Part shown: positions 2,166-35,484 of the stretch, one piece after another
How positions within the stretch are numbered: position 1 is the stretch's first letter
Layout of the letters: each line of letters starts with the position of its first letter
Virus record (IMG/VR): IMGVR_UViG_3300025018_000324
Coordinates: 1-35,997 of that record
Direction: 5' to 3' (one strand)
Source: a virus
Lineage: Duplodnaviria; Caudoviricetes
DNA length: 35,997 nt
Position numbers and translations under genes: made by a program
Notes under the pieces: generated by a model
What the model saw: the letters and a program-made list of their open reading frames with translations, nothing else
The model's database searches: none
Told to the model about the DNA's origin: nothing

Positions 2166-2510
2166 CTACAGCGGCGTAAAGGTCAGCCGGATGCCCGCGC
2201 TTTTCCGGGAGCACCGTTCCTGCCTGGCGGTGAACCTAACGATGTGGCTGGGGCTGTCGTTCTCGAGCCTGCCGATGCGCTGTAGCGCATCGAGGGGAAC
2301 CTTGCAGCAGCTGCAAGCGTTGTCCCAGTCCATCGCATTGGCCGACAGCACGGTGAACTCGAGTTCGCACGGCGTGGGGATGTGCGCCACCCCCAGCCCA
2401 AGGAACCTCATTTCCCATGAGTACCGAACCTGGGCATAGGACCTGTAGTGCATGGTCTTCAGCTCGTTTAGGCCCGGCGGACGGCCCATGTCTCGGACCT
2501 CGAGGGTCAC
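2166..2510 (-). CDS. rusA: RusA-like Holliday junction resolvase
   Basis: PPGLN...DWDNACSCCKVPLDALQRIGRLENDS matches the RusA DxDN...K...DAL...G...D pattern. GTG at 2510 with AGGA upstream is preferred over the longer ORF start. Confidence 0.75.
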   Translation of the reverse strand: MTLEVRDMGRPPGLNELKTMHYRSYAQVRYSWEMRFLGLGVAHIPTPCELEFTVLSANAMDWDNACSCCKVPLDALQRIGRLENDSPSHIVRFTARQERCSRKSAGIRLTFTPL

Positions 2511-2587
2511 TCCACTTCCTTTAGCTGACGCTTGCCCAAGGATGTGGTCGGGGCGCGGGGCACCCAGGAGCGATGCCCCGCCTTCGG

Positions 2588-2785: not shown

Positions 2786-3091
2786 TCATTGCTTGGCCCT
2801 CCGCCCGTCGGGGTCCACCTCGTACACTTGCGCTCCACCGCAGACCGTGCACTCAGCCATATCGATGGAGCAGGCTTTGTCTGCGTCCTCGTCACCGTAG
2901 ACGCAGAATCCGTCATGAATCCCGTCGATATAATCGGCCGCAGTGACGGCGCCGCCCTCGTGGGTCGCGCAGTAGGGCGCCTCTCCGCTCTCGTCGCAGA
3001 CCTCGCAGTTTACCAGGTTCGGACTCCGGTGGTCGTCACGTGGTTGCCGGTCGTCATAGGCCTGCTGCGCGGAAGCATATCCGTCGCTCAT
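2786..3091 (-). CDS. Small Cys-rich zinc-finger-like protein
   Basis: CEVCDESG and CTVCGG motifs; ATGA overlap with the upstream stop at 3088. Confidence 0.65.
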   Translation of the reverse strand: MSDGYASAQQAYDDRQPRDDHRSPNLVNCEVCDESGEAPYCATHEGGAVTAADYIDGIHDGFCVYGDEDADKACSIDMAECTVCGGAQVYEVDPDGRRAKQ

Positions 3092-3534
3092 GTCGTCATC
3101 CCTGTGTTCGTGGTTGTGGCGTCCTCGGTCTCGGTCGAGCATACTCCCGGGCAGTGGTGGCTGATCCTGGTATTGTCCAAAAACTTGCGACCTGCAGGAG
3201 CTACGACGTGATTGCGCGCCCGGTCTGATCCGGTGCGCCGGACTAGACCACGATTCACTAGGGCGATCAGATGCTCGAACACCGTGGCCGGTGACCGATC
3301 TAGGCTTTTGCTTAGTTCGGCGACAGTTGGTGGCACGCCGCCGGAGAGCCTTGTGGCGGAGTCGAGTTCTCGCAACACGGCGAGACTCCTGGGGGAGGGT
3401 GGCTTGCCCCGGAGAAGTTGGCGACCCTCGAGTTGGGCGAGGGCGCGAACGAGTTCTTTCCGCGTCGTTTTGTTCCCGCGGCCACGTAGCATTCGCTTGA
3501 GGAGCCGTCGTGCGAGTTGGTTGCTTCCGCTCAT
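3088..3534 (-). CDS. LexA-type winged-HTH DNA-binding protein without peptidase domain
   Basis: SPRSLAVL...GVPPTVAELS...SPATVFEHLIALVNRGLVRR...RAR resembles the LexA N-domain; ATGA coupling at 3531-3534. Confidence 0.75.
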   Translation of the reverse strand: MSGSNQLARRLLKRMLRGRGNKTTRKELVRALAQLEGRQLLRGKPPSPRSLAVLRELDSATRLSGGVPPTVAELSKSLDRSPATVFEHLIALVNRGLVRRTGSDRARNHVVAPAGRKFLDNTRISHHCPGVCSTETEDATTTNTGMTT

Positions 3535-5101: not shown

Positions 5102-5739
5102 TCGGGAGCCCCTAGGCCGACACGCCCGAGGAAATTAGCGAGGTACTGCGCGTAATCAACCGCGGCGTTGCCCCCTCGCACGATGCAGAGCCCCGGAATC
5201 AGCCGCTCACCCGGACGGAGAGCGTTCGTTTGTGGCCGTTTACGGCCTTTCTCTTTTCTCTTATTCCCAATAGAGGAAGGTTTGCGCCACTGATGCGACA
5301 TTGCCTTCACCAGACCCTCGCGGCACTTTGCCACGACGGCCTTGATCGTCACCCCCTCCCCGCTGAGACAGCGGCCATCCTCGTCTAGGACCCCTCCCGG
5401 GCACCGGAAGGCCCCGCGGGAAAACTCGTGGGGGATGGCGAGCCTCCGGGTTCCGCCGCCGTTCCAGCGCGCCCAGAGGCTTGCCCTGGCGGTCGTGAGC
5501 AGACCGGCCCGCACGAGTGCCTTTTCCCACCTCTGGATTGTCCGGGTCGTGACAGCGAAGCGCTCGGCGAGATCCGACTGCAAGACCCAGGTATACCGAC
5601 GGTCCTTCCCGCAGGCCCGGACCAACTCCTCGAAGAGGAGGCGCGCGCCGAACGGGACTCGGAGTTCCCGCATTGCGTCGGCAAAAACCGATGATTGGTA
5701 GAACGCGCGGGAGTTTCTGGTACTATAGGCATCAGACAT
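5098..5739 (-). CDS. Winged-HTH protein, probable replication initiator
   Basis: QSDLAERFAVTTRTIQRWEKALVRAGLL HTH directly upstream of dnaB. Start at ATG 5739 or GTG 5865. Confidence 0.7.
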   Translation of the reverse strand: MSDAYSTRNSRAFYQSSVFADAMRELRVPFGARLLFEELVRACGKDRRYTWVLQSDLAERFAVTTRTIQRWEKALVRAGLLTTARASLWARWNGGGTRRLAIPHEFSRGAFRCPGGVLDEDGRCLSGEGVTIKAVVAKCREGLVKAMSHQWRKPSSIGNKRKEKGRKRPQTNALRPGERLIPGLCIVRGGNAAVDYAQYLANFLGRVGLGAPE

Positions 5740-5861: not shown

Positions 5862-6596
5862 TCACAGGGTTGCCTCGGTAGGGTAGAGACCGGCAAATGG
5901 GTTGCCCTCGTCCTCGACCTCGACCTCGACCTCGACGGGGGCTTCGACGCTGACCGAGAACTGCGCGTCCTCGGCCTCGACGGGGTCCAGCCTTTGGGTA
6001 GAGCCGCGCAGGATTGCGTCGACGGTCGCGGTGGCTTCCGCCGAGGCGGAAGCCGGGTAGTGGGCCATGTCCTGCAGTTCTTCCACGGAAAGCATTCCCA
6101 TGGTGACTTCGGGACAGGACAGCCGGATGAGGAAGGCTGCTGCCCGGTAGGCCAGCATGAGCGCTGGGGTCTTCTGGTAGGCGTCGTTCGAGGTCCAGCC
6201 CGCATTTTTAGCAAGCTCCATCGACACGGGAATGGATTCGACGATGCCTCCGTCTTCGGCCAGTTTTGCCCAGGCGGTCACGGTGAGCGCATTTCCAGTG
6301 CCCTCGTAACGAAACCGGATCGGCCCACGAAAGACGCCTGATCGGTTCGCGAGGGCGATCAGGAATTTGGACGAATACCCCGGAGTCCCTTTAACCACGA
6401 ACACGTTCTGGAGTGCGCTCTGTGGGTCGCACCCAAGGGTTTCTGCCTGGTGTAGGACTATGGCGATGTCCGCTGGTTTCCCGCGGAACTGCTTCGGGCA
6501 TAGGTCGGAGGTCGACAGAGCCTTAGCGAGGCCCCACCGGTCGGCCTTTTTCCGCTCGTAGAGCGTTACGTCCGGCTGTTCTTTCTTGGCGTCCAT
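5862..6596 (-). CDS. recT: RecT/Red-beta-like single-strand annealing protein
   Basis: SDLCPKQFRGKPADI...LGCDPQSALQNVFVVKGTP...MLAYRAAAF, acidic tail, adjacent to an exonuclease; GAGG before ATG 6596. Confidence 0.8.
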   Translation of the reverse strand: MDAKKEQPDVTLYERKKADRWGLAKALSTSDLCPKQFRGKPADIAIVLHQAETLGCDPQSALQNVFVVKGTPGYSSKFLIALANRSGVFRGPIRFRYEGTGNALTVTAWAKLAEDGGIVESIPVSMELAKNAGWTSNDAYQKTPALMLAYRAAAFLIRLSCPEVTMGMLSVEELQDMAHYPASASAEATATVDAILRGSTQRLDPVEAEDAQFSVSVEAPVEVEVEVEDEGNPFAGLYPTEATL

Positions 6597-6597
6597 G

Positions 6598-7419
6598 TTA
6601 TTCCTCGGTAAGTGCCCACATGGGCAGGGAAACAGTCTCGATACCACGCCCTGAGTATCCCGGCCACTCGCCGGAATCGAGGCATTGGCGGTAGGTTTTG
6701 GCAGCTCGAAGGATTTCGAGCTCGCCATGGTGGACGGCGACGTCGTCGAGCTTGATCACTCGCACGAACTCGGCCTTGTTCTCGGAGCGCATCATCTCGT
6801 CCGATGTCTCGACGACAACGAACAGAAACGCTTTGGGCTCGAGCCCCGCCGCGGCGGCAGCTCGGAGGTAGAAGGCCGCTTGGCGGTGATAGCTCAGTTT
6901 GGGCACGCTCCGGTGGAACTCCCAGGCGTTACGGCTCGTTTTCAGATCCACCGCGATCCCGGCATTTGCGAACACGTCTAGGCGAGCTTTCGCGGGACAC
7001 CCGTCGAGGTCGAATAAGATGGTGAGCTCTCGACGGCCTCGAAGCAGTCCCGATTCGGCCAGCTGCCTGTTGGTGAGGACCGCGATTGCGGCCCCGTCGG
7101 CCAGGCGCCGCTCGTCCGCGTTCAGCACTAGCGCCCCAGGTTTCATTTCTCCGGTGAACCGCGCCCAGGCCGCCTTGCCGGCGGTGGTACGCCTGTCGAC
7201 CACGGGGGCAACCGGGAGCATTGCCGCCACCTTTTCTGGCTCCAGCACCAGCATGTGGACGGCGGTACCGACCCTCATGGCTGAGCTCTGCTCGCCCCAC
7301 TCGTGAGCCCGGAGGTGGGCAGGCGTCTTCCCGAGTAGTACCGCCGCTTGGGAGTTGGATAATCCCGGGAGCGCGAGGTACTCCGCAAAGGGCATGTTTT
7401 CAATGATTTTGGATCTCAT
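6598..7419 (-). CDS. PD-(D/E)xK exonuclease, RecE/exonuclease VIII-like (DUF3799-type)
   Basis: EYLALPGLSNS, GTAVHMLVLEP, KARLD, VDLKT, YHRQAAFY, WPGY. Confidence 0.9.
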   Translation of the reverse strand: MRSKIIENMPFAEYLALPGLSNSQAAVLLGKTPAHLRAHEWGEQSSAMRVGTAVHMLVLEPEKVAAMLPVAPVVDRRTTAGKAAWARFTGEMKPGALVLNADERRLADGAAIAVLTNRQLAESGLLRGRRELTILFDLDGCPAKARLDVFANAGIAVDLKTSRNAWEFHRSVPKLSYHRQAAFYLRAAAAAGLEPKAFLFVVVETSDEMMRSENKAEFVRVIKLDDVAVHHGELEILRAAKTYRQCLDSGEWPGYSGRGIETVSLPMWALTEE

Positions 7420-7434
7420 GTGGTGTTTCTGTTG

Positions 7435-7497
7435 AAAAAAGCGGCAAGGGGGCCTCGGAAAAGGACGCGGCAACCCCCTCGCCAAACCCTTGCCGCG
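7435..7497 (-). terminator. Terminator/attenuator-like structure
   Basis: Minus strand GCGGCAAGGG...CCCTTGCCGC followed by T6, with alternative internal pairings. Confidence 0.6.
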
Positions 7498-7953: not shown

Positions 7954-8586
7954 TTATTTAGCCTCACGGTCAACTGCCTCCTCAGGCGCGAGCGCCTGTT
8001 CGACGTACACGCCGCTCCAATATACGCCGGAACCGTCCCGGTCGGAATCTCCTGACCATTCGAGGACGAGCCCAGCGGCGGCGAACCGGGACGCAGTGCC
8101 TTCCCCCCAGACGCGATCGAGGGCGTCCAATACGTCCTCCTCCTCCTCGTCGAGGCTATCCTCAACACCGAAGTAGACGTAGGTGCCGTGGTTCTCCATC
8201 TTCGGCGCGTCGTCGCCGAGCAGCCGCCGGACTGCGTCGGCGACGGGCTCGGGCGCGGGCGCGGGATCGGGCACGGGATCGGGCACGGCCGTCGGTATGG
8301 GCGCGGGCGCGCCCGCCCGCACAACGCGTACGCCTAGCCAGTAGGCGCCCGTGCGCCCGTCGCGGTCGGAGTCCCCGGACCATTCGACCGCGAGCCCCGC
8401 GGCCGTGAACCGGTCCGCCGTACCGGCGCCCCAGACGCAATCGAGGGCGTCCAATACGTCCGGACCGGACTGGTTGTCCTGGACGCGGAAATAGGCCGCG
8501 TCCTCCGGGTAGTCGCCGAGTAGCGCGTCGTCGCCGAGCAGCCGCCGGATCGTGTCGCTTATCGTGGTCGTGGTCTCGTTCGTCAT
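7954..8586 (-). CDS. Acidic early protein with two tandem duplicated domains
   Basis: RRLLGDDA...DVLDALDxVWGxGTAxRFxAAGLxxEWSGDSDRDG occurs twice, joined by a Pro/Ala linker; ATG at 8586. Confidence 0.8.
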   Translation of the reverse strand: MTNETTTTISDTIRRLLGDDALLGDYPEDAAYFRVQDNQSGPDVLDALDCVWGAGTADRFTAAGLAVEWSGDSDRDGRTGAYWLGVRVVRAGAPAPIPTAVPDPVPDPAPAPEPVADAVRRLLGDDAPKMENHGTYVYFGVEDSLDEEEEDVLDALDRVWGEGTASRFAAAGLVLEWSGDSDRDGSGVYWSGVYVEQALAPEEAVDREAK

Positions 8587-8628
8587 GTCGTGGTTGTGGT
8601 TGTGGTCGGCACCAGCGCCGACAGCCAC

Positions 8629-8657
8629 ATCTTCGGCGGAACGCGGCGGAAGCGCAA
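8629..8657 (-). promoter_or_regulatory. Sigma70-like leftward promoter candidate
   Basis: TTGCGC-N17-GAAGAT on the minus strand; TTCCGCCG repeated with a 10-bp period across the spacer. Confidence 0.45.
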
Positions 8658-8841
8658 GCACCAAATGCCGCCCGAACGCAGAAAGGCCGAGGCAGCGGCG
8701 TATCTGCGGCAACTGTAAGGGGTTACGTCTGCCGAGAAAAGTCGGGAAGTTATTAAGCCGTGAGCGCGGGCGGGTTACGGACCTCGGTCAGCTGATGGCA
8801 CCTGCAGAGCGCGCAACTCATGGTAGAATAGGGACTTGCGT

Positions 8842-9207
8842 TCAGTTGGGACGGCCTGGAGACCACCCGGCGAGAGCCACCTCGACCGCGTCGCGGAAGC
8901 GCGGTGCTGTGCGCAGTCCGGCCTCAAGCTCGACGCCCAGCTCGAGCGCCCCGCCCAGCGACAAGCGCCGGTCGACGCGCGCCAGGCAAGCGGCGTGCGA
9001 AGGCCGCCGCTCGAGGAACAGGCTCGCTGCCGCGAGGCCCGCGCACAGGATCCCGACGGGCCAGGCCGCGAGCTGCGTCTCGGCGCGCGCAACGAGCACG
9101 GTGAACAGGCCCGCGAGCAAGCCGCCGAGGCTCGCCTCCACGAGCGCGTTCGCCAACCCGCCGCAGTACGCGAGCCGCGCGGCGCCGCTCGGGCTCAGTT
9201 GGCGCAC
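8842..9207 (-). pseudogene. 5' fragment of a bacterial-type membrane protein gene
   Basis: GAGGA-N7-GTG start, two TM segments, then RRPS...ARVDRRLSLGGAL; nearly all codons end in G/C; stop abuts the 29-bp site ending at 8840. Confidence 0.55.
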
Positions 9208-9217
9208 CAGGGCGTCC

Positions 9218-9312
9218 TCAACGCACGGTCGCTTCGAGCGAGCGGTCCGGCTCGTGTAGCGACGCGCGGAAGCGCTCCGGCAGCGACTCGAGCTGCACGT
9301 GCGGCGGAGGCG
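9218..9312 (-). pseudogene. 3' fragment of an upstream gene without its start
   Basis: APPPHVQLESLPERFRASLHEPDRSLEATVR-TGA with G/C-ending codons; the frame is closed upstream by a TAG inside the 9311-9339 site. Confidence 0.45.
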
Positions 9313-9357
9313 CAAGTGCCTATATATCAAGTGGTTATGTCACGGACGGCCTCTCCG

Positions 9358-9436
9358 CCTTTACTAAATCCTTAGCTAAATCCTTAGCTAAATCTAAGTT
9401 AACGGGGCCCGATTAGTAAAGGGTTTAGTAAAGGGT
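9358..9436. repeat. Two opposed AT-rich 12-bp tandem arrays
   Basis: (ctaaatccttag)x2 plus ctaaatctaag at 9364-9398; (ttagtaaagggt)x2 at 9413-9436; the units match about 9/12 as reverse complements. Confidence 0.85.
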
Positions 9437-9680
9437 TCGGACGACTGCCGGTCGCTCGCGCGATCCTCGCGGCTGCGGTCTATGCCGATGTTAGGTATCT
9501 TATCGCAATGGGCTAAGACGCCTAAACTGTGACCGGGGTCCCGGTCGTCGATAGCACCGATTACGATCTGCCGCAGCGCCGCCGAACCGTCCTGCTCGCA
9601 TCCATCGCCTAGCCGAAGTCCGAGAAGTGTCACTTGCACTAGTGCTAGTGTCTGATAATGTGCTCCAATAAGAGGCACTC

Positions 9681-11072
9681 ATGGCTCACACCTACGACTT
9701 ATCGAGCACGCTCTCGCCCAACTGGACCGCGATGTGGGACTTGGCTTGGTTCGGTATCCCCGCCAGCGACCCAAAGCCTGGGCCCGACTGGACTTACGGT
9801 AATTGGGACCTCGCAAATTTCCACGAGATTAACCCCGCGGCCTATCCGGGAGTTCCGTACGCCACGCACGACCCGGCCGCCTGTGCGCCCTACTACGGCT
9901 TCGGCGACCACCGCCAAGTCGCGAGCTACTTTCGCCCGCTCGTTGGGCCATATAGCTCCAGCGGCCAAGACGCGGAAAGTCGGGCGAAGCGCGACCTCGA
10001 CCTCGGGCTGTTGCGGCGTCCGTCGGACCCGCGAGCGCGACTCGACGCGTGGATTGTGGAATTGTACACACTCGGCTACACGTCGCAGGCCGGTTATGCG
10101 GGCGGAGACGCCGGTTACGACGCCGTTGCCGACTACCGGTGGCAGGCGCTGCTGTCGGCCATGGAGCGCGCTACAGCGGCAGGGCTGGCGTCCTGCGTGA
10201 CCGGCGCGCTAAATTTGAGCCGCGTATTTACCCCGCCCCAGACCCCGGACCCATATCCGACGACACAGGCCAAGATGGATGCCACCGTCGCCGACTTAGT
10301 CACCATCGTGGACGCTATCCTGGCGTCTGCCGCTGGCCTCCAGATCGGCGGTCGCGCGCTACTCTTCGTTTGGGTCGGAAACGACGTACTCTTTACTCCA
10401 GGGGAACTCGAGACCGTGTTCGAGACTGCCCGCACAACCACGGGGAATGATTTCTATGTGGTCGCGCCAAGAAACTCGGGCGCGACCACTCCGTTGGCGT
10501 GGGCCGATGGAATTCACCCATGGTCCGGAAACAACGAATGGGCGCTCGCTGTCGGGGGCACCACGCGGGCGAAATCCGCGGACTGGACCGCGAAGAGGCA
10601 CGACCCCTGGATCGCGCAATTGCCGAGCTACCCAGGGCGCGTCGTTATGGGGAGTGTGTTCCCAGGTTTCGAGGACTGGGCGAAAGGGTTTGGCCAAGAT
10701 TTGGACCGCGATATTCCTAGGTCCGAAGATTTGGTGCTCGGCCAATTTGATTACTTCGGCTCTGCCCCTGGCCTGACTGGCTATCTCGCCCAGACCTGGA
10801 ACGACTTCCCCGAGGGCTCGAATTGGGAGCCACACGTCTCGACGGCCGCCGCAGAGCTCGAGTGGTTGACGGAAGGGTTTGCGTCCCTGTTTGGCGAGTC
10901 CTTGGTGGCGGCCGAGACCGCTGCTTTACGCGCCATGTGGACGGGCTACGGCGTGTCGCGTGCTTGCACGCCGCCGAGCGCTGGCGGTGGCCCCAGGATG
11001 TCGGGCCCGCGGCACGAATCCCCCACCTACTCGCCGTCCAGAAATTCACCGACCGCTGGCAAAGGAGCCTAA
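9681..11072 (+). CDS. Glycoside hydrolase, GH71/GH99-like TIM barrel
   Basis: RPLVGPYSS, GRALLFVW, SVFPGFED, QTWNDFPEGSNWEP motifs; GAGG RBS. Confidence 0.7.
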   Translation: MAHTYDLSSTLSPNWTAMWDLAWFGIPASDPKPGPDWTYGNWDLANFHEINPAAYPGVPYATHDPAACAPYYGFGDHRQVASYFRPLVGPYSSSGQDAESRAKRDLDLGLLRRPSDPRARLDAWIVELYTLGYTSQAGYAGGDAGYDAVADYRWQALLSAMERATAAGLASCVTGALNLSRVFTPPQTPDPYPTTQAKMDATVADLVTIVDAILASAAGLQIGGRALLFVWVGNDVLFTPGELETVFETARTTTGNDFYVVAPRNSGATTPLAWADGIHPWSGNNEWALAVGGTTRAKSADWTAKRHDPWIAQLPSYPGRVVMGSVFPGFEDWAKGFGQDLDRDIPRSEDLVLGQFDYFGSAPGLTGYLAQTWNDFPEGSNWEPHVSTAAAELEWLTEGFASLFGESLVAAETAALRAMWTGYGVSRACTPPSAGGGPRMSGPRHESPTYSPSRNSPTAGKGA

Positions 11073-27882: not shown

Positions 27883-30800
27883 ATGGTTCTCGACGACACG
27901 GCGCTGGATCACATCCTCACGGAATCCGACATCGCTAAGATCCGGGCTGAGTCCCTGGCGAAGCGCAACATCGGGCTTGATGAATATGGGGACGGTGCAC
28001 CCGATCTAGTCCAGAACGGTCCACCTGCGCGCATTCAGACTAGCGTAGATGCGGAGTGGGCCTCGCTCATGTCTGGAGTCGATGGGATACGGCCAACCAA
28101 GTTTGACCCTAAAGGGTTCCGCACGGCCTCCGAGAGAACAGCGGAGCGTCGAGCTAACATGGGCGCGCTAGAGTCTTCGGCGGCCAATGTTTACAATTTT
28201 GCGCAACAGCTGACCACAGGGGTCGCGGAGGTGGCAGCCGCCGTGCCTGAGCTCGCAGGACAAGTGGCCGAATTTGCTACGGGATCCAGCAAGCCCTCAG
28301 CGGCGATAATGGAGTCAGCTCTAAAGAAGGATCGCGAAGGCAAGCCGCTCACCGGCGAAGAAGCTCAAGCCGTGGCCTGGGAGCCAAACTTCTTGCGATC
28401 GCTCAGCTCGAGCATCCGAAAAATCGCGGAGTACGACGACCGAATGCTAGACGGGGACGGACAGCCGCTTCAGGCCCAATCCTTTTTAGCCGGTGCATTC
28501 TCACAGGGCCTTGGTTCCGCGGCGGGCTTCATGGGTGGTGGTGCCGCGCTAAAAGCCGCAGGTGTCGGGAGCGACTTGCTCGCAATCGGCGGCCTCGGGG
28601 CTATCGCGGAAGGGCAGTCCATGTACCGAGAGGCCGAGGATGCGGGGGCGACTCCGCAACAGAAGGCTATCGCCATGCTGATCGGGATGGGGGCAGGATC
28701 GACAGAAGTCGTTGGTGCATCCGGCATTATTATGCGGCTCAACAAGGCGGCAGGCGGCTCCCTGATGAGGTCGTTATCAGACCCCGGCCTGATCCCTAAG
28801 ATCATGGCTGAAGGTGGCGAAGAGGCTGGACAGGAGTTCGTCCAGCAGCTGGTTGAGGATGCGGGGCGGCAGTATCTCGCCAAGTACGGCGAAAACAAGA
28901 CGTGGAACGAGATGACGGCTATGGCGTTCCAGCAGGGCGCTCTTCCAGCCTTCCTTGTGGGTGGCCTACTCGGCGCCGGCGCCGCGGTAGATCTGGCGAG
29001 TACTCAAAAACAGGCAACAAAGAAGGTTGCCGCGGACATCGGTGAGACTGGAGCCCGGGATCTTGGTCAGGCTATCGAAGCAGAGCCGCAACAGTCCGTT
29101 CCGAAGAAGACCCCAGAGCAGGCAATCGAGTTCTTCCGCGAAGGCAACATCGACACGCTCGAGAAGCAGCTGAAAGCCACGAAGACCCCCGATGGTCGGT
29201 CCGAGCTCGAGGCGAGGATCCAGGCTGTGCGCGACATGAAGTTTCGCACCCTTGGCGAGCAGGTTGAGGGGGTCGGAGTCCACCCCGAGGAGGCCGCCCT
29301 AGTCGGTACCCTGACGACGCTCCAGGAGGCGGGCGCGAAGACTCCAGACGTTCTTGTGGCCGACTCGGCTAACCCGCTTCCCATGCAGGGTATGAGCCTC
29401 GGTGGGCAGATCGTGATTGACGGGTCTCAAGCCGGTGATGTCCTTCGCGGCGTGATTTTCCACGAGGCGTTCCATCATGCGGTTCCCGTGGGCTCCAAGC
29501 CGATGAAGGCCCTAGTGCTGACCGCGAGGGAACAGTTTCCGGAGTTGATGCAGCGTCTGCGCGTCGAGTATCTGCGCCGCTACACCAGGCAAACGGATGA
29601 GCCCCCGTTCGCCGAGTACGAGGGGGAGGAGCGTCTTGCCCGCGAGTTCGAGGAGGCGTTTGCTATCGGCGCGGAGTTGATGCCGGACCTGATCCAGGAG
29701 GTACTTGGCGACTCCGAGACGTTCAGCGAGGAGAACTTCGCCAAGAACTCCGGCCTGCGTGGGCTCCTACAGGCGATCCGCGACTTTGTGGTTTCAGCCC
29801 TAAACAAGTTGCCAAAAGTCAACCTCACTTCTCGGGTCGACAAGGAACGTGCAGCGCTCGTCAGGGAGCTATCCGGAGACCTGTCGACGTTCGATCCAAA
29901 GCAGCTACAGGCCTTCGCAGAGGCGCTGTCAGCGGCATATCGCAGTGCCGAGCCTGTCGCGTTTGCCAAGGCGGTGCAGAAGATCACGGTGGGCGACGTG
30001 TTGGCTAGAGGGCAGACGGACTTCTACAGCGCCGAGCGCGGGGAGGCGTTCTTCGACGAACAGGCGGCGATACGCGAAGAGGCAATCCAAGAGTTGATAA
30101 GCATCGGGACGCCACGCGCCGACGCCGAGAGGAAGGTCGATGTGATGTACTCGGTTGCGGACTCTGACGCAAATTCGACGATCTTCTTGAGCTCAAGGTT
30201 CGGCGCCCGTGTCGAGTCGGTGCTGGCCGATAATTTGATCCATTTGCGGAACCTCCAGGCGACGCTCGAAGTGCCAGAGGGGGGCAACTGGGATAGAGAG
30301 GACACGCGTTCATCTGGCCTGCTGATGCACGCGGTGAACGAGTTCCAAGAGCAGTTTGTTACCCCGCTCGTCCGAGCCATGTCGGACGGGAACATCTCGA
30401 TTGAGGCGGTGCACCTATACCTCGCGGCTCTGACATCGCTCGAGCGCAACGAAACGCTCATCAAGCGCGATCAAGCAGCCGACCCAAAAGACCGCAAGCA
30501 CTTCGGCAGGGAAGTCAACCCGGGCGCATGGCTGCGAGAGTCCGAGGCAAACGCGATCATCAAGGCCTCGCTCAGCGGCGAGAAGGCCAAGTACTTCAGG
30601 CGGGTCCGTAGGCTGAACGCGGCCATGCACGAGTCCAAGCTAAAGCTCATCGAAAGGTCCGGGCTCGAGCCGCAGGAGGTCATCGACAAAACGCGAGCCT
30701 TAGGATGGAAAAACTACTCCCCGATGAAGACTCTCATGCGAGGGCGGCCAGGCATCTCCCGTGGTCGTGGTTTCTCTATCAACGGAAAAACGGTCGCCCG

Positions 30801-32796
30801 TATGACTGGGCGCCGCACGGAGCCAGATAACGTCCTGATTGCTGGCGTGATGGACTACATCTCAGTCCTGACGCGGGTGGAAAAAAACCGCGTGATAACC
30901 TCACTCGCCAAATTGGTAGAGGCTAACCCAGACCCGACCCTGTGGGAGATTGTGAAGGGATCACTAGCGGACGTCCGCATGACGGGTCAAGACGAGATCG
31001 AAGCTGGTGAGGAGGCCAATATCTACCGCGCACTGTGGGACGCTCGGATCCCAACCGCTGACTCAGCGGTGGGCTTCATGAGGGACGGCAAACAGAACTA
31101 CATCGTATTCCACCCGCGGGGTAAGCACCTAGCCGACGCGCTCACGGGGGCAAACCTCTTTAGCGTGGGCAGCTTACTGCGCCCGTTTGGGACCATCAAC
31201 CGCTATTACGCCGCCGCAAACACGTCGTGGTCCCTGAACTTCATCGTAGACAACTTCCGCAGGGATGCAATGCTCGGCGGGATCAGGATTGCTTTAGACC
31301 TGAGTGTGAAGGACGCGGCGAAGGTCGTGTCGAGCGCGCCGGCGGCGGTCCGTGCACTACTCACAGGCAAGGGTGGGCAAGCCGCGCTCGTCGAGGCATA
31401 CGTCGCATCTGGAGCCAAGACGGGGCACTTCTGGGGTGGCGACTTCGCCGAACAGCGACGTGGGCTCGAAAGGCAGCTCAAGCGCGCTCAGGCCGCTACG
31501 GGATTAATCGACCGCACCGGCCGCGGCTTCTCAGCTCTTGTTGGTCTGGTGTCTCACGTGAACGACGCCATAGAGAACGGAATTCGATTCGCCTACTGGC
31601 AGCACCTCGTTCGTGACGGCATGTCGCATGAGGACGCGGCGGTGAAGACCAAGGAGTTGACGATCAACTTCAACAAGCGCGGTCGGCTTGCACCGATTCT
31701 TGGTCCTCTATACCTGTTCTTCAATGCGTCCATGCGCGGCTCCGTCGCGATCCGCGACATGGTGAGGGAGCATCCACGCAAGATCGTCGGCGGTCTATTC
31801 TCGCTTGGCGTCTTTCTCGACCTCCTGAACTACATGTTGTCCGGTGACGACGACGACGGGGAAAACGCGTGGGATGCGCGCGGCGAGTTCGAGAAGGACC
31901 GCTACCTGATGGTCCCCGATGGAAGCGGCGGGTTTCTCAAACTATGGTCCATGCCTTACGGGCTGAACGCGTTCGTGACGATGGGGCGCCAGTTTTCGAT
32001 GATGCTACGCGGCGCGGCAAGCCCAGGCGGCGCGCTATCCGCCGCGATGGCTTCGGCTATCGACTCGTTCAACCCGCTCGGAGGGTCGGGCGGAGAACTC
32101 GACAAGGCGATGGGGCATATGGTCTCACCGACCGCGTTCGACCCGTTCCTCGATGTTGCCATGAACGACAACTTTGCGGGGCGCAGGATCTATAACGATT
32201 TTGCTGACTCGAACGTAAAGGCCGACGCATACACTGGTTGGGAATCAACCTCGGGGTTCTGGCATGGCATGGCGCAGGAACTCAATGCGCTCGGCGGGGG
32301 GGATCGGATCAGGTCTGGAGGCAATCTGGACGTTCATCCGGAAACGCTGCGCCACCTGTGGAAACAAATCGGAGGCGGAATTTGGCGCGACGCTACCAAT
32401 ATGACCGACGCCTTCTCGTCGCTTGTATCTGGAGACTTCGTTGAAGCTTTCAACATTGCCCCAGTCACGAGCAAGTTCCACACGAGCGAGTACCACGAAA
32501 AGTTCCTAAGTTCCTACTACGACAACATAGCGGCGATTGATCAGGCCGCGAAGGTCGCTGGCACGGAAGACCTCAAGCTCAATCGGGAAGAGCGTGCGCT
32601 TGCCAACCTCGAGGGTGAACGCAAGAGAATCACACGGTACGTCAAGGCCATGAATACGGCCATAGACCAGGCAGATGATCCCGCCGAAGCGGAGTCGCTC
32701 ACGCTCGAGCTCAAGACCGAGGTTCGCGCTTTCAACCGGGCCATATCGGACGCGCGCAAAACGGCCAGAGAGGCCAACACCCACCAAAAGAAATGA
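27883..32796 (+). CDS. Large internal virion/polyvalent protein with HExxH and LPD38-like domains
   Basis: 1637 aa; Gly-rich hydrophobic helices, IFHEAFHH...EEAFA, then ENGIRF...TINFNKRG...LYLFFNASMRG...PYG...NDNFAGRRI. Confidence 0.8.
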   Translation: MVLDDTALDHILTESDIAKIRAESLAKRNIGLDEYGDGAPDLVQNGPPARIQTSVDAEWASLMSGVDGIRPTKFDPKGFRTASERTAERRANMGALESSAANVYNFAQQLTTGVAEVAAAVPELAGQVAEFATGSSKPSAAIMESALKKDREGKPLTGEEAQAVAWEPNFLRSLSSSIRKIAEYDDRMLDGDGQPLQAQSFLAGAFSQGLGSAAGFMGGGAALKAAGVGSDLLAIGGLGAIAEGQSMYREAEDAGATPQQKAIAMLIGMGAGSTEVVGASGIIMRLNKAAGGSLMRSLSDPGLIPKIMAEGGEEAGQEFVQQLVEDAGRQYLAKYGENKTWNEMTAMAFQQGALPAFLVGGLLGAGAAVDLASTQKQATKKVAADIGETGARDLGQAIEAEPQQSVPKKTPEQAIEFFREGNIDTLEKQLKATKTPDGRSELEARIQAVRDMKFRTLGEQVEGVGVHPEEAALVGTLTTLQEAGAKTPDVLVADSANPLPMQGMSLGGQIVIDGSQAGDVLRGVIFHEAFHHAVPVGSKPMKALVLTAREQFPELMQRLRVEYLRRYTRQTDEPPFAEYEGEERLAREFEEAFAIGAELMPDLIQEVLGDSETFSEENFAKNSGLRGLLQAIRDFVVSALNKLPKVNLTSRVDKERAALVRELSGDLSTFDPKQLQAFAEALSAAYRSAEPVAFAKAVQKITVGDVLARGQTDFYSAERGEAFFDEQAAIREEAIQELISIGTPRADAERKVDVMYSVADSDANSTIFLSSRFGARVESVLADNLIHLRNLQATLEVPEGGNWDREDTRSSGLLMHAVNEFQEQFVTPLVRAMSDGNISIEAVHLYLAALTSLERNETLIKRDQAADPKDRKHFGREVNPGAWLRESEANAIIKASLSGEKAKYFRRVRRLNAAMHESKLKLIERSGLEPQEVIDKTRALGWKNYSPMKTLMRGRPGISRGRGFSINGKTVARMTGRRTEPDNVLIAGVMDYISVLTRVEKNRVITSLAKLVEANPDPTLWEIVKGSLADVRMTGQDEIEAGEEANIYRALWDARIPTADSAVGFMRDGKQNYIVFHPRGKHLADALTGANLFSVGSLLRPFGTINRYYAAANTSWSLNFIVDNFRRDAMLGGIRIALDLSVKDAAKVVSSAPAAVRALLTGKGGQAALVEAYVASGAKTGHFWGGDFAEQRRGLERQLKRAQAATGLIDRTGRGFSALVGLVSHVNDAIENGIRFAYWQHLVRDGMSHEDAAVKTKELTINFNKRGRLAPILGPLYLFFNASMRGSVAIRDMVREHPRKIVGGLFSLGVFLDLLNYMLSGDDDDGENAWDARGEFEKDRYLMVPDGSGGFLKLWSMPYGLNAFVTMGRQFSMMLRGAASPGGALSAAMASAIDSFNPLGGSGGELDKAMGHMVSPTAFDPFLDVAMNDNFAGRRIYNDFADSNVKADAYTGWESTSGFWHGMAQELNALGGGDRIRSGGNLDVHPETLRHLWKQIGGGIWRDATNMTDAFSSLVSGDFVEAFNIAPVTSKFHTSEYHEKFLSSYYDNIAAIDQAAKVAGTEDLKLNREERALANLEGERKRITRYVKAMNTAIDQADDPAEAESLTLELKTEVRAFNRAISDARKTAREANTHQKK

Positions 32797-34224: not shown

Positions 34225-35484
34225 TTACGCCGAGGCGCTGATTTGGTCCACGGTCTTGTGCTTCACGCCGTCGATGAAGACCCAGATCGGGGCGTTGATG
34301 GAATGGACATTTTTGACAGACCACTCATCCGCACCGTTGATATCGATGCGAGCGTTCGATCCGGGGGGGACGTCAATCACCCCAGTGGACAGGCTGACGC
34401 TTGCGCACCCATCGAAGAGCATTGCCTGCTGAGGCGACTTCGCCGAACGGAAAAAGAAACGATTTAGGGTTGCCGACCTCTTATATGGATCGCCAGTTCC
34501 GGCGTAGCCCTCAACGAGTAAGAAGCCACGGCTAGAGGACTGCAGCCAGTTGTCGATCAGCATGTCATCCATCCGGACGTGACTCCTGGCGGCAAACAAC
34601 GAGTGGTTGAACGAGGCCCGCCCAGTGCCCGGCTGACTTACGTTGAAGGCGCTGACTCGGCGATAGACAATATCCTTCCCCGCCGTCATGTCGGCCGCCA
34701 TATCCGGCGTCTCATGGCTGTAGTCTGTGTTGGGGTTCGGACTCTTGAACTTGTCGCGCTGGACAAGCTGGGTCGCCTGTCCCTGGCAGTTGATAAATGC
34801 CATGTCCTCGAAGATGACGAGATGGCCTCCCGTGTCGCCACCGTTCATTCCGCAGAGGCTAAGGTATAGCCCATGCTCGTCCTGGATGTCTCGAACCACT
34901 CCGTCAATGAAGGCCACGTCTGACCGCAACCCGTGAAGCCTCGCACCCCAACGCCGGTTGCGCTCGATGGCGAAGTGCTCGAAGGCAACACCATCGAGGT
35001 ATTTGTAGACTCCCTGGACGGGCATGGTGAGCAGCGTCGTTTGTGTATAGGCGTTCACTAGATCTCCGTCCACGGCTACGCCCTGTAGAAGCGTGTCCAG
35101 GACGAGCTGCCCACTTGTAATGTGCCAGGTGTCCTTCCAGGCGCCTTGTCCATATAGGCTCACGTTCCCGTATGCCTGGGCCCCCCCATGTAGGCTCACG
35201 TTCCCGTATACGTGGGCCCCCCCATGACGGGTAGGGCATACGCTGAGAACCGACGCGGCAATGGCCTCGATTCCGTCGGTCCCTGGGGCCTCTGGGGCCT
35301 CTGGGGCCTCTGGGGCCTCTGGGGCCTCTGGCTGGGCGATGGGGGCAGATTCGGCTAGTTCAGCTCGGCGGATCAGTTCGGCGACGTTGGCGATCCGGAG
35401 CTCGCGATTGTTCTGGTCCTGGATGTCGGACAGGTAGAAGTCGCGCAGGATGCTACTCAGGGGTTTGCTAGATAGATCGGGCAT
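34225..35484 (-). CDS. Predicted right-handed beta-helix (pectin lyase-like fold) protein
   Basis: Repeated beta-coil pattern (VRDIQDEHGLYL, IFEDMAFINC, IVYRRVSAFN); short N-terminal helix and (APE)n linker. Confidence 0.6.
   Translation of the reverse strand: MPDLSSKPLSSILRDFYLSDIQDQNNRELRIANVAELIRRAELAESAPIAQPEAPEAPEAPEAPEAPGTDGIEAIAASVLSVCPTRHGGAHVYGNVSLHGGAQAYGNVSLYGQGAWKDTWHITSGQLVLDTLLQGVAVDGDLVNAYTQTTLLTMPVQGVYKYLDGVAFEHFAIERNRRWGARLHGLRSDVAFIDGVVRDIQDEHGLYLSLCGMNGGDTGGHLVIFEDMAFINCQGQATQLVQRDKFKSPNPNTDYSHETPDMAADMTAGKDIVYRRVSAFNVSQPGTGRASFNHSLFAARSHVRMDDMLIDNWLQSSSRGFLLVEGYAGTGDPYKRSATLNRFFFRSAKSPQQAMLFDGCASVSLSTGVIDVPPGSNARIDINGADEWSVKNVHSINAPIWVFIDGVKHKTVDQISASA
35155..35226 (-). 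repeat. 36-bp tandem duplication
   Basis: Encodes HGGAHVYGNVSL / HGGAQAYGNVSL. Confidence 0.85.
35283..35331 (-). repeat. 9-bp tandem repeat x5
   Basis: (ctggggcct)x5 on the plus strand, encoding PEAPEAPEA on the minus strand. Confidence 0.9.

Follow-up and report, generated by a model that had tools for sequence, protein, structure and literature searches.

The DNA analysed here, referred to below as the window, is the whole virus record of a groundwater phage, and a second assembly of the same phage measures 36,286 bp. Its genes are arranged in a leftward operon, which encodes RecE, RecT, a replication initiator, DnaB, a LexA-type HTH protein and RusA, and a rightward operon, which carries the terminase, a portal-like gene and large virion genes. 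The two operons are separated by a 1.1-kb gap, in which lie a segment of host-derived DNA, here called the arm, and two 29-bp sites (Table 1). The first early gene (7954-8586, minus strand) encodes an acidic 210-aa protein with two tandem repeats (105-nt copies 83% identical), for which no family was found, and contigs in sequencing runs X3 and X7 hint that this gene has variants or related copies. In the right part of the window, a 1637-aa protein with an LPD38 large polyvalent domain (27883-32796, plus strand) is likely an ejected virion protein. No family was found for a 419-aa ORF with 9-nt and 36-nt tandem repeats (34225-35484, minus strand), or for a leucine-rich-repeat-like ORF at the contig end (35534-35997, minus strand).

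Table 1. Positions of the features discussed in the text, numbered from the first letter of the window.
Feature	Position	Strand	Remarks
Phage genome	1-35,997		whole virus record, classed linear, completeness rating 100%
RusA-like Holliday junction resolvase	2166..2582	-	phrog_1682, E 7e-10
LexA-type HTH protein, within replication operon	3088..3534	-	PF01726, E 3.5e-7
RecT-like single-strand annealing gene	5862..6728	-	phrog_561, E 1e-59; PF03837
RecE/exonuclease VIII-like gene	6598..7485	-	phrog_412, E 3e-60
Left site, 29 bp	8812..8840	+	YAA-N4-TT-N7-AA-N4-TTR geometry with 2 mismatches; extended -10-like hexamer inside
Non-host linker, 25 bp	8841..8865	-	gives truncated gene B 7 codons and a stop
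Host-derived homology arm, 438 bp	8866..9303	-	at least 99.3% identity to a probable Planctomycetota chromosome
Gene B 5' part, 342 bp (114 codons)	8866..9207	-	99% identical to the N-terminus of P0001/P0007
Gene A 3' end, 86 bp with TGA	9218..9303	-	whole gene present in contig L107
Non-host linker, 7 bp, arm to right site	9304..9310	.	host/phage divergence at 9303
Right site, 29 bp	9311..9339	-	inverted relative to left site; unique perfect WATCAANNNNTTR at 9325-9337
Eroded relic of KwaA-like and Dcm methylase cassette	9355..9609	.	collinear 39-69 bp blocks, 87-100% identical to contig L108

The arm is made up of the end of one host gene (gene A, 86 bp), a 10-bp spacer and the start of the next (gene B, 342 bp), and the RBS-like GAGG of gene B overlaps the gene A stop. 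Its ends are defined by contigs that leave the phage sequence at exactly these points: contigs of X3 and X6 and the metagenome contig L107 depart from the phage at 9303, and contigs of X4 and X8 at 8866, in each case continuing the host reading frame, so that the arm is 438 bp long. An earlier sequence-only reading had described a host segment of about 470 bp between the two sites; its host origin was borne out, while its length was not. The two frames reported in that reading, a 121-aa ORF (8842-9207, minus strand), whose last seven codons and stop are supplied by the left linker, and a start-less frame upstream of it, are both present in the window. Their codons do end mostly in G or C, with GC3 values of 0.91 and 0.86, respectively, above the 0.71-0.82 of ten phage genes and comparable with 0.92 in the whole host gene A. 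The longest perfect run shared by the arm and the chromosome is 185 bp.

Over its first 114 residues the 121-aa ORF is 99% identical to a 303-aa protein (P0001) and it diverges afterwards, and the cluster to which it belongs has four truncated and two full-length members. The ORF is thus a truncated form of P0001, and its interpretation as a full-length phage gene was ruled out. Gene B encodes this 303-aa predicted membrane protein, and gene A, complete in L107, encodes a 285-aa YdjY-domain protein (NF040466, E 9e-23); both genes are therefore longer in the host than in the phage, as had been foreseen for a capture from a two-gene junction. The same truncated 121-aa ORF (P0004) also occurs on a contig of 57,049 bp, 21 kb longer than the phage, which could be an integrated prophage or a mis-join with a co-occurring 57,035-bp contig of X2.

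Among 109 homologs of gene A, both of the two that carry an organism label are from Planctomycetota, and in four other cases the longest contigs of the A and B homologs are equal in size (138583, 10234, 8406 and 79475 bp), which suggests that A and B form a conserved chromosomal pair. The host is probably a Planctomycetota bacterium. In the atlas, P0001 lies near unnamed clusters in which the commonest phyla are Pseudomonadota and Planctomycetota, and the gene left of the sites gave no result there. Metagenomes scanned at the protein level with the 121-aa ORF gave no match, and neither did a GTDB scan with alignment A1, by which the host genome was not found; the same alignment matched none of 101 genomes in the phylum to which G003 belongs.

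The junctions between arm and phage were followed in 8 of the 24 public runs listed (X1-X8), which had been found with a query consisting mostly of phage sequence, and all junction data are short-read contigs, unable to phase a 438-bp repeat. Both phage junctions are crossed without any difference by one contig of X2 (rec3, depth 147) and one of X1 (rec1, depth 9.6), either of which may be the window's own source; contigs L105 and L106 likewise run through both, and contigs of X3 and X5 each bridge one. An assembly chimera, which had been listed as an alternative, is ruled out by these four crossing contigs. Besides the window, six contigs among the matches listed span the arm with both flanks. 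Four of them have phage DNA on both sides (X1 rec1, X2 rec3, L105, L106), one joins gene A through the arm to the phage left flank (L107, with 942 bp of host DNA), and one joins gene B through the arm to the phage right flank (X4 rec10, with 230 bp of host DNA), whereas none of these six has host DNA on both sides. A scan with one arm-internal 28-mer, which is unbiased towards the phage, returned three contigs, none of which was the empty host locus.

In L107 gene A is whole and gene B is truncated, and in X4 rec10 gene B runs on for at least 230 bp. These are the reciprocal hybrids expected from one crossover, found as unphased contigs in different data sets, and the two hybrid junctions were not seen together in any single run among the eight. 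Host-side continuation of the arm was found in four of the eight runs (X3, X4, X6 and X8), all of which also contain phage DNA beyond the arm. Contig depth, which is not copy number and has a floor near 2, was about 6.2 for the host branch against 6.3-7.0 for the phage in X3, 5.4 against 3.3 in X4, 3.2 against 2-4 in X6 and 4.3 against 2.5 in X8; the arm contig of X3 has a depth of 6.3, which is not doubled. In X4 the phage-left contig ends at 8818 with no gene A branch listed, and in X3 no gene B branch occurs among the matches listed. Because free phage and uninfected host would give the same four-branch graph, the hybrid contigs may be graph artefacts, and with two branches lost at a depth of 3-6 they could arise in the absence of integration.

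Three positions in the arm are variable (9051, 9210 and 9255), where host-side contigs carry G, A and G, and the window and L106 carry T, G and T. In L105, the host alleles are found at all three positions between phage flanks, and of the 12 differences that it shows across 18,562 bp, three are in the arm (binomial p 0.0025). L107 carries T, A and G, with the phage allele beside the phage flank and the host alleles beside gene A, a haplotype that fits one crossover, as its alleles switch once, between 9051 and 9210. X4 rec10 (T, A, T) and X3 rec7, at the phage-left end (G, G, T), have haplotypes that are incompatible with one crossover and look like collapsed bubbles, so that the host alleles in L105 may reflect consensus mixing too. 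The window's arm has two coding differences, each of which alters an amino acid, so that this copy is not kept for its protein.

The two inverted sites proposed in the sequence-only reading are real, with 12 of 13 bases agreeing in their inner arms and 18 of 29 overall. Their consensus occurs only at these two places in the window and in none of 100 shuffles; a 12/13 inverted match within 60-nt flanks anchored at the host breakpoints arose in 3 of 5000 shuffles, and in a genome-wide scan of 1772 real flank pairs with a spacing of 438 nt, the two matches were both at this locus. An unanchored test of 8700-9400, in which self-palindromes were counted, gave six matches against a shuffled mean of 4.2, which is not significant. 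A 9-bp direct repeat lies beside both sites (8849-8857 and 9344-9352), and a 7-bp inverted repeat brackets the right one (9303-9309 and 9353-9359).

The role given to the sites in that reading, as attachment sites or cassette ends, fared less well. They are set off from the host DNA by 25 bp on the left and 7 bp on the right, and at the host breakpoints, both within reading frames, no counterpart site is present, so that the arm was not excised from the chromosome by them as a cassette. In addition, of 103 viral loci with the motif, none has a second 12/13 arm within 900 bp under the narrow pattern used. The sequence WATCAANNNNTTR is the IHF consensus, and a symmetric 3-4-2-7-2-4-3 geometry is common to IHF sites and lambda-type core sites. 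This consensus is found in perfect form once in the genome, in the right site, and the left site is not within one mismatch of it; the left site fits the symmetric form only, with two mismatches, and 15 other places also have two or fewer. Judged from these sequence features, it is likely that the two sites belong to the divergent control region of the phage and are bound there by a host IHF-type protein, and that no crossover takes place at them.

An inverted pair of sites around cargo, as in pdif-type modules, is present here. A canonical 11-6-11 dif site was rejected, as the sites do not stand out at the 6-bp spacing, where they share 10-12 of 22 arm bases with two published dif sites, and the right site, at 11-12 of 22, is equalled by 75-212 genome places. 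With a 9-bp spacer the right site reaches 15 of 22, which is the best or tied-best score in the genome against two published dif sequences. The central seven bases of the left and right sites agree at three positions. In the accessible part of the source, dif prediction failed for the one Planctomycete tested, Rhodopirellula (PMC3025954). No sigma-70 promoter was called in 8500-9800 and no terminator was called; Rfam gave no family and one match below gathering, and the folding of 8790-9370 is not unusual (z 0.47). The site motif has eight matches in GTDB, of which three are intergenic, one is at a transposase end and the remaining four look like chance coding matches. A looser motif showed no enrichment over its reversed control in five genomes (16 vs 34 matches), and none of 24 ORFs neighbouring bacterial motif matches is a tyrosine recombinase. 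Look-alikes of the motif elsewhere occur singly. One of these, a look-alike of the left site in an unrelated phage (L006, 2872-2900), is located between the terminase and the next gene, just before the gene start, and overlaps an extended -10-like sequence.

Next to the arm lies the eroded relic of a KwaA-like and Dcm methylase cassette, which is intact in a 72-kb viral contig (L108, 1217-3818), beside a KwaA-like gene. The blocks retained correspond to a repeat array, the end of a small gene, the methylase promoter and 66 bp of Dcm coding sequence; what takes up about 1,280 bp in L108 is reduced to about 230 bp in the window, about 1 kb having been lost via three deletions. The relic blocks recur on other contigs of X2, X3, X4 and X5. 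This likeness points to DNA exchange between two unrelated phages, which probably share a host. The array (window 9362-9435, L108 2784-3053) consists of short direct and inverted repeats of the TTAG[CT]AAA type; it is common to both phages, is duplicated in L108 and is iteron-, operator- or element-end-like. With an eroded foreign cassette adjoining the arm, the region is one that collects foreign DNA, and the simplest view is that this gap takes up and loses DNA over time and that the arm is its most recent acquisition.

All copies of the phage that were seen belong to one species, are more than 99.9% identical and carry the arm (the window, L105, L106, X1, X2 and X3). Viral scans with the terminase, RecE, a 463-aa gene and the arm returned identical fragments or distant phages only; the control region was matched by none of the loci from these scans, which held no relative with another insert, and the contig of the nearest relative (63% in the terminase) does not contain the region. 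Cultured phages gave no match, and plasmids gave short weak matches only. With a single species of such identity and no relative covering the region, the uneroded state of the arm can mean youth or use.

Profile matches were obtained for the RecE-, RecT-, RusA- and LexA-type HTH genes, all four of which had been named in the sequence-only reading. The same reading had recognised no integrase, and the searches agree: tyrosine integrase, resolvase and large serine recombinase profiles (PF00589, PF00239, PF07508) gave 0 matches at E<=1 in six frames over the whole record, and none of the 37 and 16 ORFs compared with Pfam/PHROG is an integrase. If the 36,286-bp assembly is circular, at most 289 bp are absent from the window, which leaves too little room for an integrase gene. 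No CI-type repressor (HTH_3) was found above the cut-off, the one sub-threshold match (5518-5580) lying within the replication initiator, and no ParA was found above the cut-off, the sub-threshold AAA_31 match being the DnaB P-loop. The LexA-type HTH protein is the sole repressor candidate seen. In the absence of a CI-type repressor or ParA above the cut-off, a stable silent state would have no evident control.

The explanation that we favour, to which we give about an even chance, is that the captured arm serves as an accidental attachment arm, through which the phage inserts by homologous recombination. In this system, host DNA would have been captured recently through illegitimate recombination, landing between the two sites, and part of the phage population would enter the chromosome by one RecA- or RecET-driven crossover in the arm, with no integrase involved and with host RecA assumed. 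One crossover of this kind (Campbell geometry) yields a whole gene A, a truncated gene B, the phage, an orphan end of gene A and a whole gene B, so that with a fragment made of the end of A and the start of B neither coding sequence is broken; it also duplicates the arm and separates gene B from a promoter upstream of gene A. The reverse crossover would free the phage and shuffle alleles. For the homology-arm integration put forward in the sequence-only reading, both predicted junctions exist as unphased contigs (L107 and X4 rec10). We infer that the hybrid contigs represent real molecules and that a recombinase of the RecA or RecET kind acts on the arm, and it seems probable that some of the population, at least, does integrate; in the accessible part of one source, integration need not mean stable lysogeny (PMC8776855). 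An accidental attachment site is more likely than an evolved system, given the eroded foreign cassette next door and the two coding differences that both change residues.

The hybrid contigs could instead be graph paths through a shared repeat, in which case the arm would be an inert relic of a one-time capture in a phage that is now lytic or a carrier. Such a capture could have come about through illegitimate RecET recombination, or an ancestor whose integrase was lost afterwards could have excised aberrantly. The joint absence of repressor, ParA and integrase fits a relic, as do the eroded foreign DNA beside the arm, the mixed haplotypes that need several switches and the occurrence of the phage alone at depth 147 in X2; by a rough estimate, a random 438-bp piece would cross a gene junction in about 1 of 3 or 4 cases. 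There is also a precedent in phi80, which carries host yecD and, in the accessible part of the report, recombines at only 6e-7 per phage (PMC3945230). Even so, we hold a relic to be unlikely, with an appreciable minority chance, as host-arm-host contigs make up 0 of the 6 spanning contigs among the matches listed while both reciprocal junction types are present, phage DNA accompanies the host flank in 4 of 4 runs at similar depth, and the L107 haplotype fits one crossover. The same hybrid-junction contigs would be expected if the arm had been selected for integrase-free lysogeny, that is, kept since both host genes stay whole, with most host cells being lysogens that are sometimes induced. The arm is placed between divergent operons, the usual place of integrase and repressor in temperate phages, it is uneroded while the neighbouring cassette has lost about 1 kb, and every phage copy seen carries it. 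However, these copies represent one phage species at more than 99.9% identity, the nearest relative (63% in the terminase) lacks the region in its contig, no silencing mechanism was found and a recent capture explains the uneroded arm equally well, and we consider such selection quite doubtful.

It is likewise doubtful, if slightly less so, that the captured two-gene junction has replaced integrase and repressor and provides homologous-recombination lysogeny of a Planctomycetota host with both genes intact. If this were true, integration would itself be the switch, separating the operon for early replication from the sequences to the right of the arm, host gene B would be put under phage control, and any RecET phage could gain a harmless attachment site by acquiring such a junction. 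A very improbable explanation is that the sites are crossover sites of a host Xer-like tyrosine recombinase, which would make the arm an exchangeable or invertible cassette or the sites an IMEX-type attachment site. The inverted pair has its like arms facing inward, as in pdif modules, the 9+7+9 geometry fits lambda-type core sites, and the right site agrees with dif at 15 of 22 bases when a 9-bp spacer is allowed. The failed Rhodopirellula prediction, as given in the accessible part of the source, leaves the form of the host dif site unconstrained (PMC3025954). Against this, the sites do not stand out at the canonical 6-bp spacing and their centres agree at 3 of 7 bases; they are separated by 25 and 7 bp from the host DNA, whose breakpoints are siteless, and the cargo holds no whole gene. 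Furthermore, no strand-changing joint was seen at the sites in eight runs (in contigs, rare forms are lost), a 12/13 partner arm is present at 0 of 103 viral loci, and there is no tyrosine recombinase among the 24 ORFs by bacterial motifs.

Insertion through an accidental arm would have practical consequences. Integrase presence is the routine basis of lifestyle calls, so that such a phage, if integrating, would be miscalled lytic, and a prophage with 438-bp flanking repeats breaks short-read assemblies and would be missed. If true, it would show how new attachment sites can evolve directly, and it offers a search image in the form of phage segments near-identical to the junction between the end of one host gene and the start of the next. 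Even if it is no more than a relic, the arm points to the host group of an uncultured phage.

Minimal pairing lengths of 31-34 bp for RecA and 23-27 bp for Red-beta are quoted in the accessible part of one report, and the 438-bp arm is far above these lengths, long enough by this measure for Campbell-type integration (PMC3945230). Genes for a general recombination pathway (RecE, RecT and RusA) are present in the phage. The closest likeness in that report is phi80, in which 300 bp of host yecD near attP, at 96% identity, recombines via RecA and the phage RecT; as here, a phage genome carries a stretch of a host core gene, a few hundred bases long, at high identity, while what the accessible part scores is rare marker capture and not integration (PMC3945230). 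The present phage differs from phi80 in its two-gene arm, its identity of at least 99.3% and its hybrid junction contigs. No integrase was found in it, whereas phi80 has its own. In the accessible parts of the open-access literature, no natural phage was found that integrates by way of a captured junction arm.

As described in the accessible parts of two sources, IMEX elements, which use the host XerC/D, resemble this locus in being integrase-less elements with an inverted pair of short pseudo-palindromic sites (PMC6744903, PMC5666396). The same likeness holds for pdif modules. The locus differs from both in that dif spacing is absent, the chromosomal target seen lies in coding DNA instead of at dif, and exchanged cargo was not encountered. 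In HP1 and in phage 21/e14 in icd, a gene-replacing attP block keeps the target gene whole, by means of a phage tyrosine integrase and a short core. These phages likewise carry host gene sequence, and the prophage ends here would be long direct repeats; in contrast to them, no integrase was found here and the block combines the end of one gene with the start of the next, so on its sequence the phage does not appear to be a member of the integrase-attP systems. The geometry proposed for our phage is that of int-defective lambda dgal-type phages and suicide vectors, in which a RecA-type crossover gives a cointegrate with direct repeats and is reversible. While those are laboratory or helper-dependent systems, the arm described here is carried by a natural phage with a full head, tail and replication gene set, which is abundant in at least one sample (X2, depth 147).
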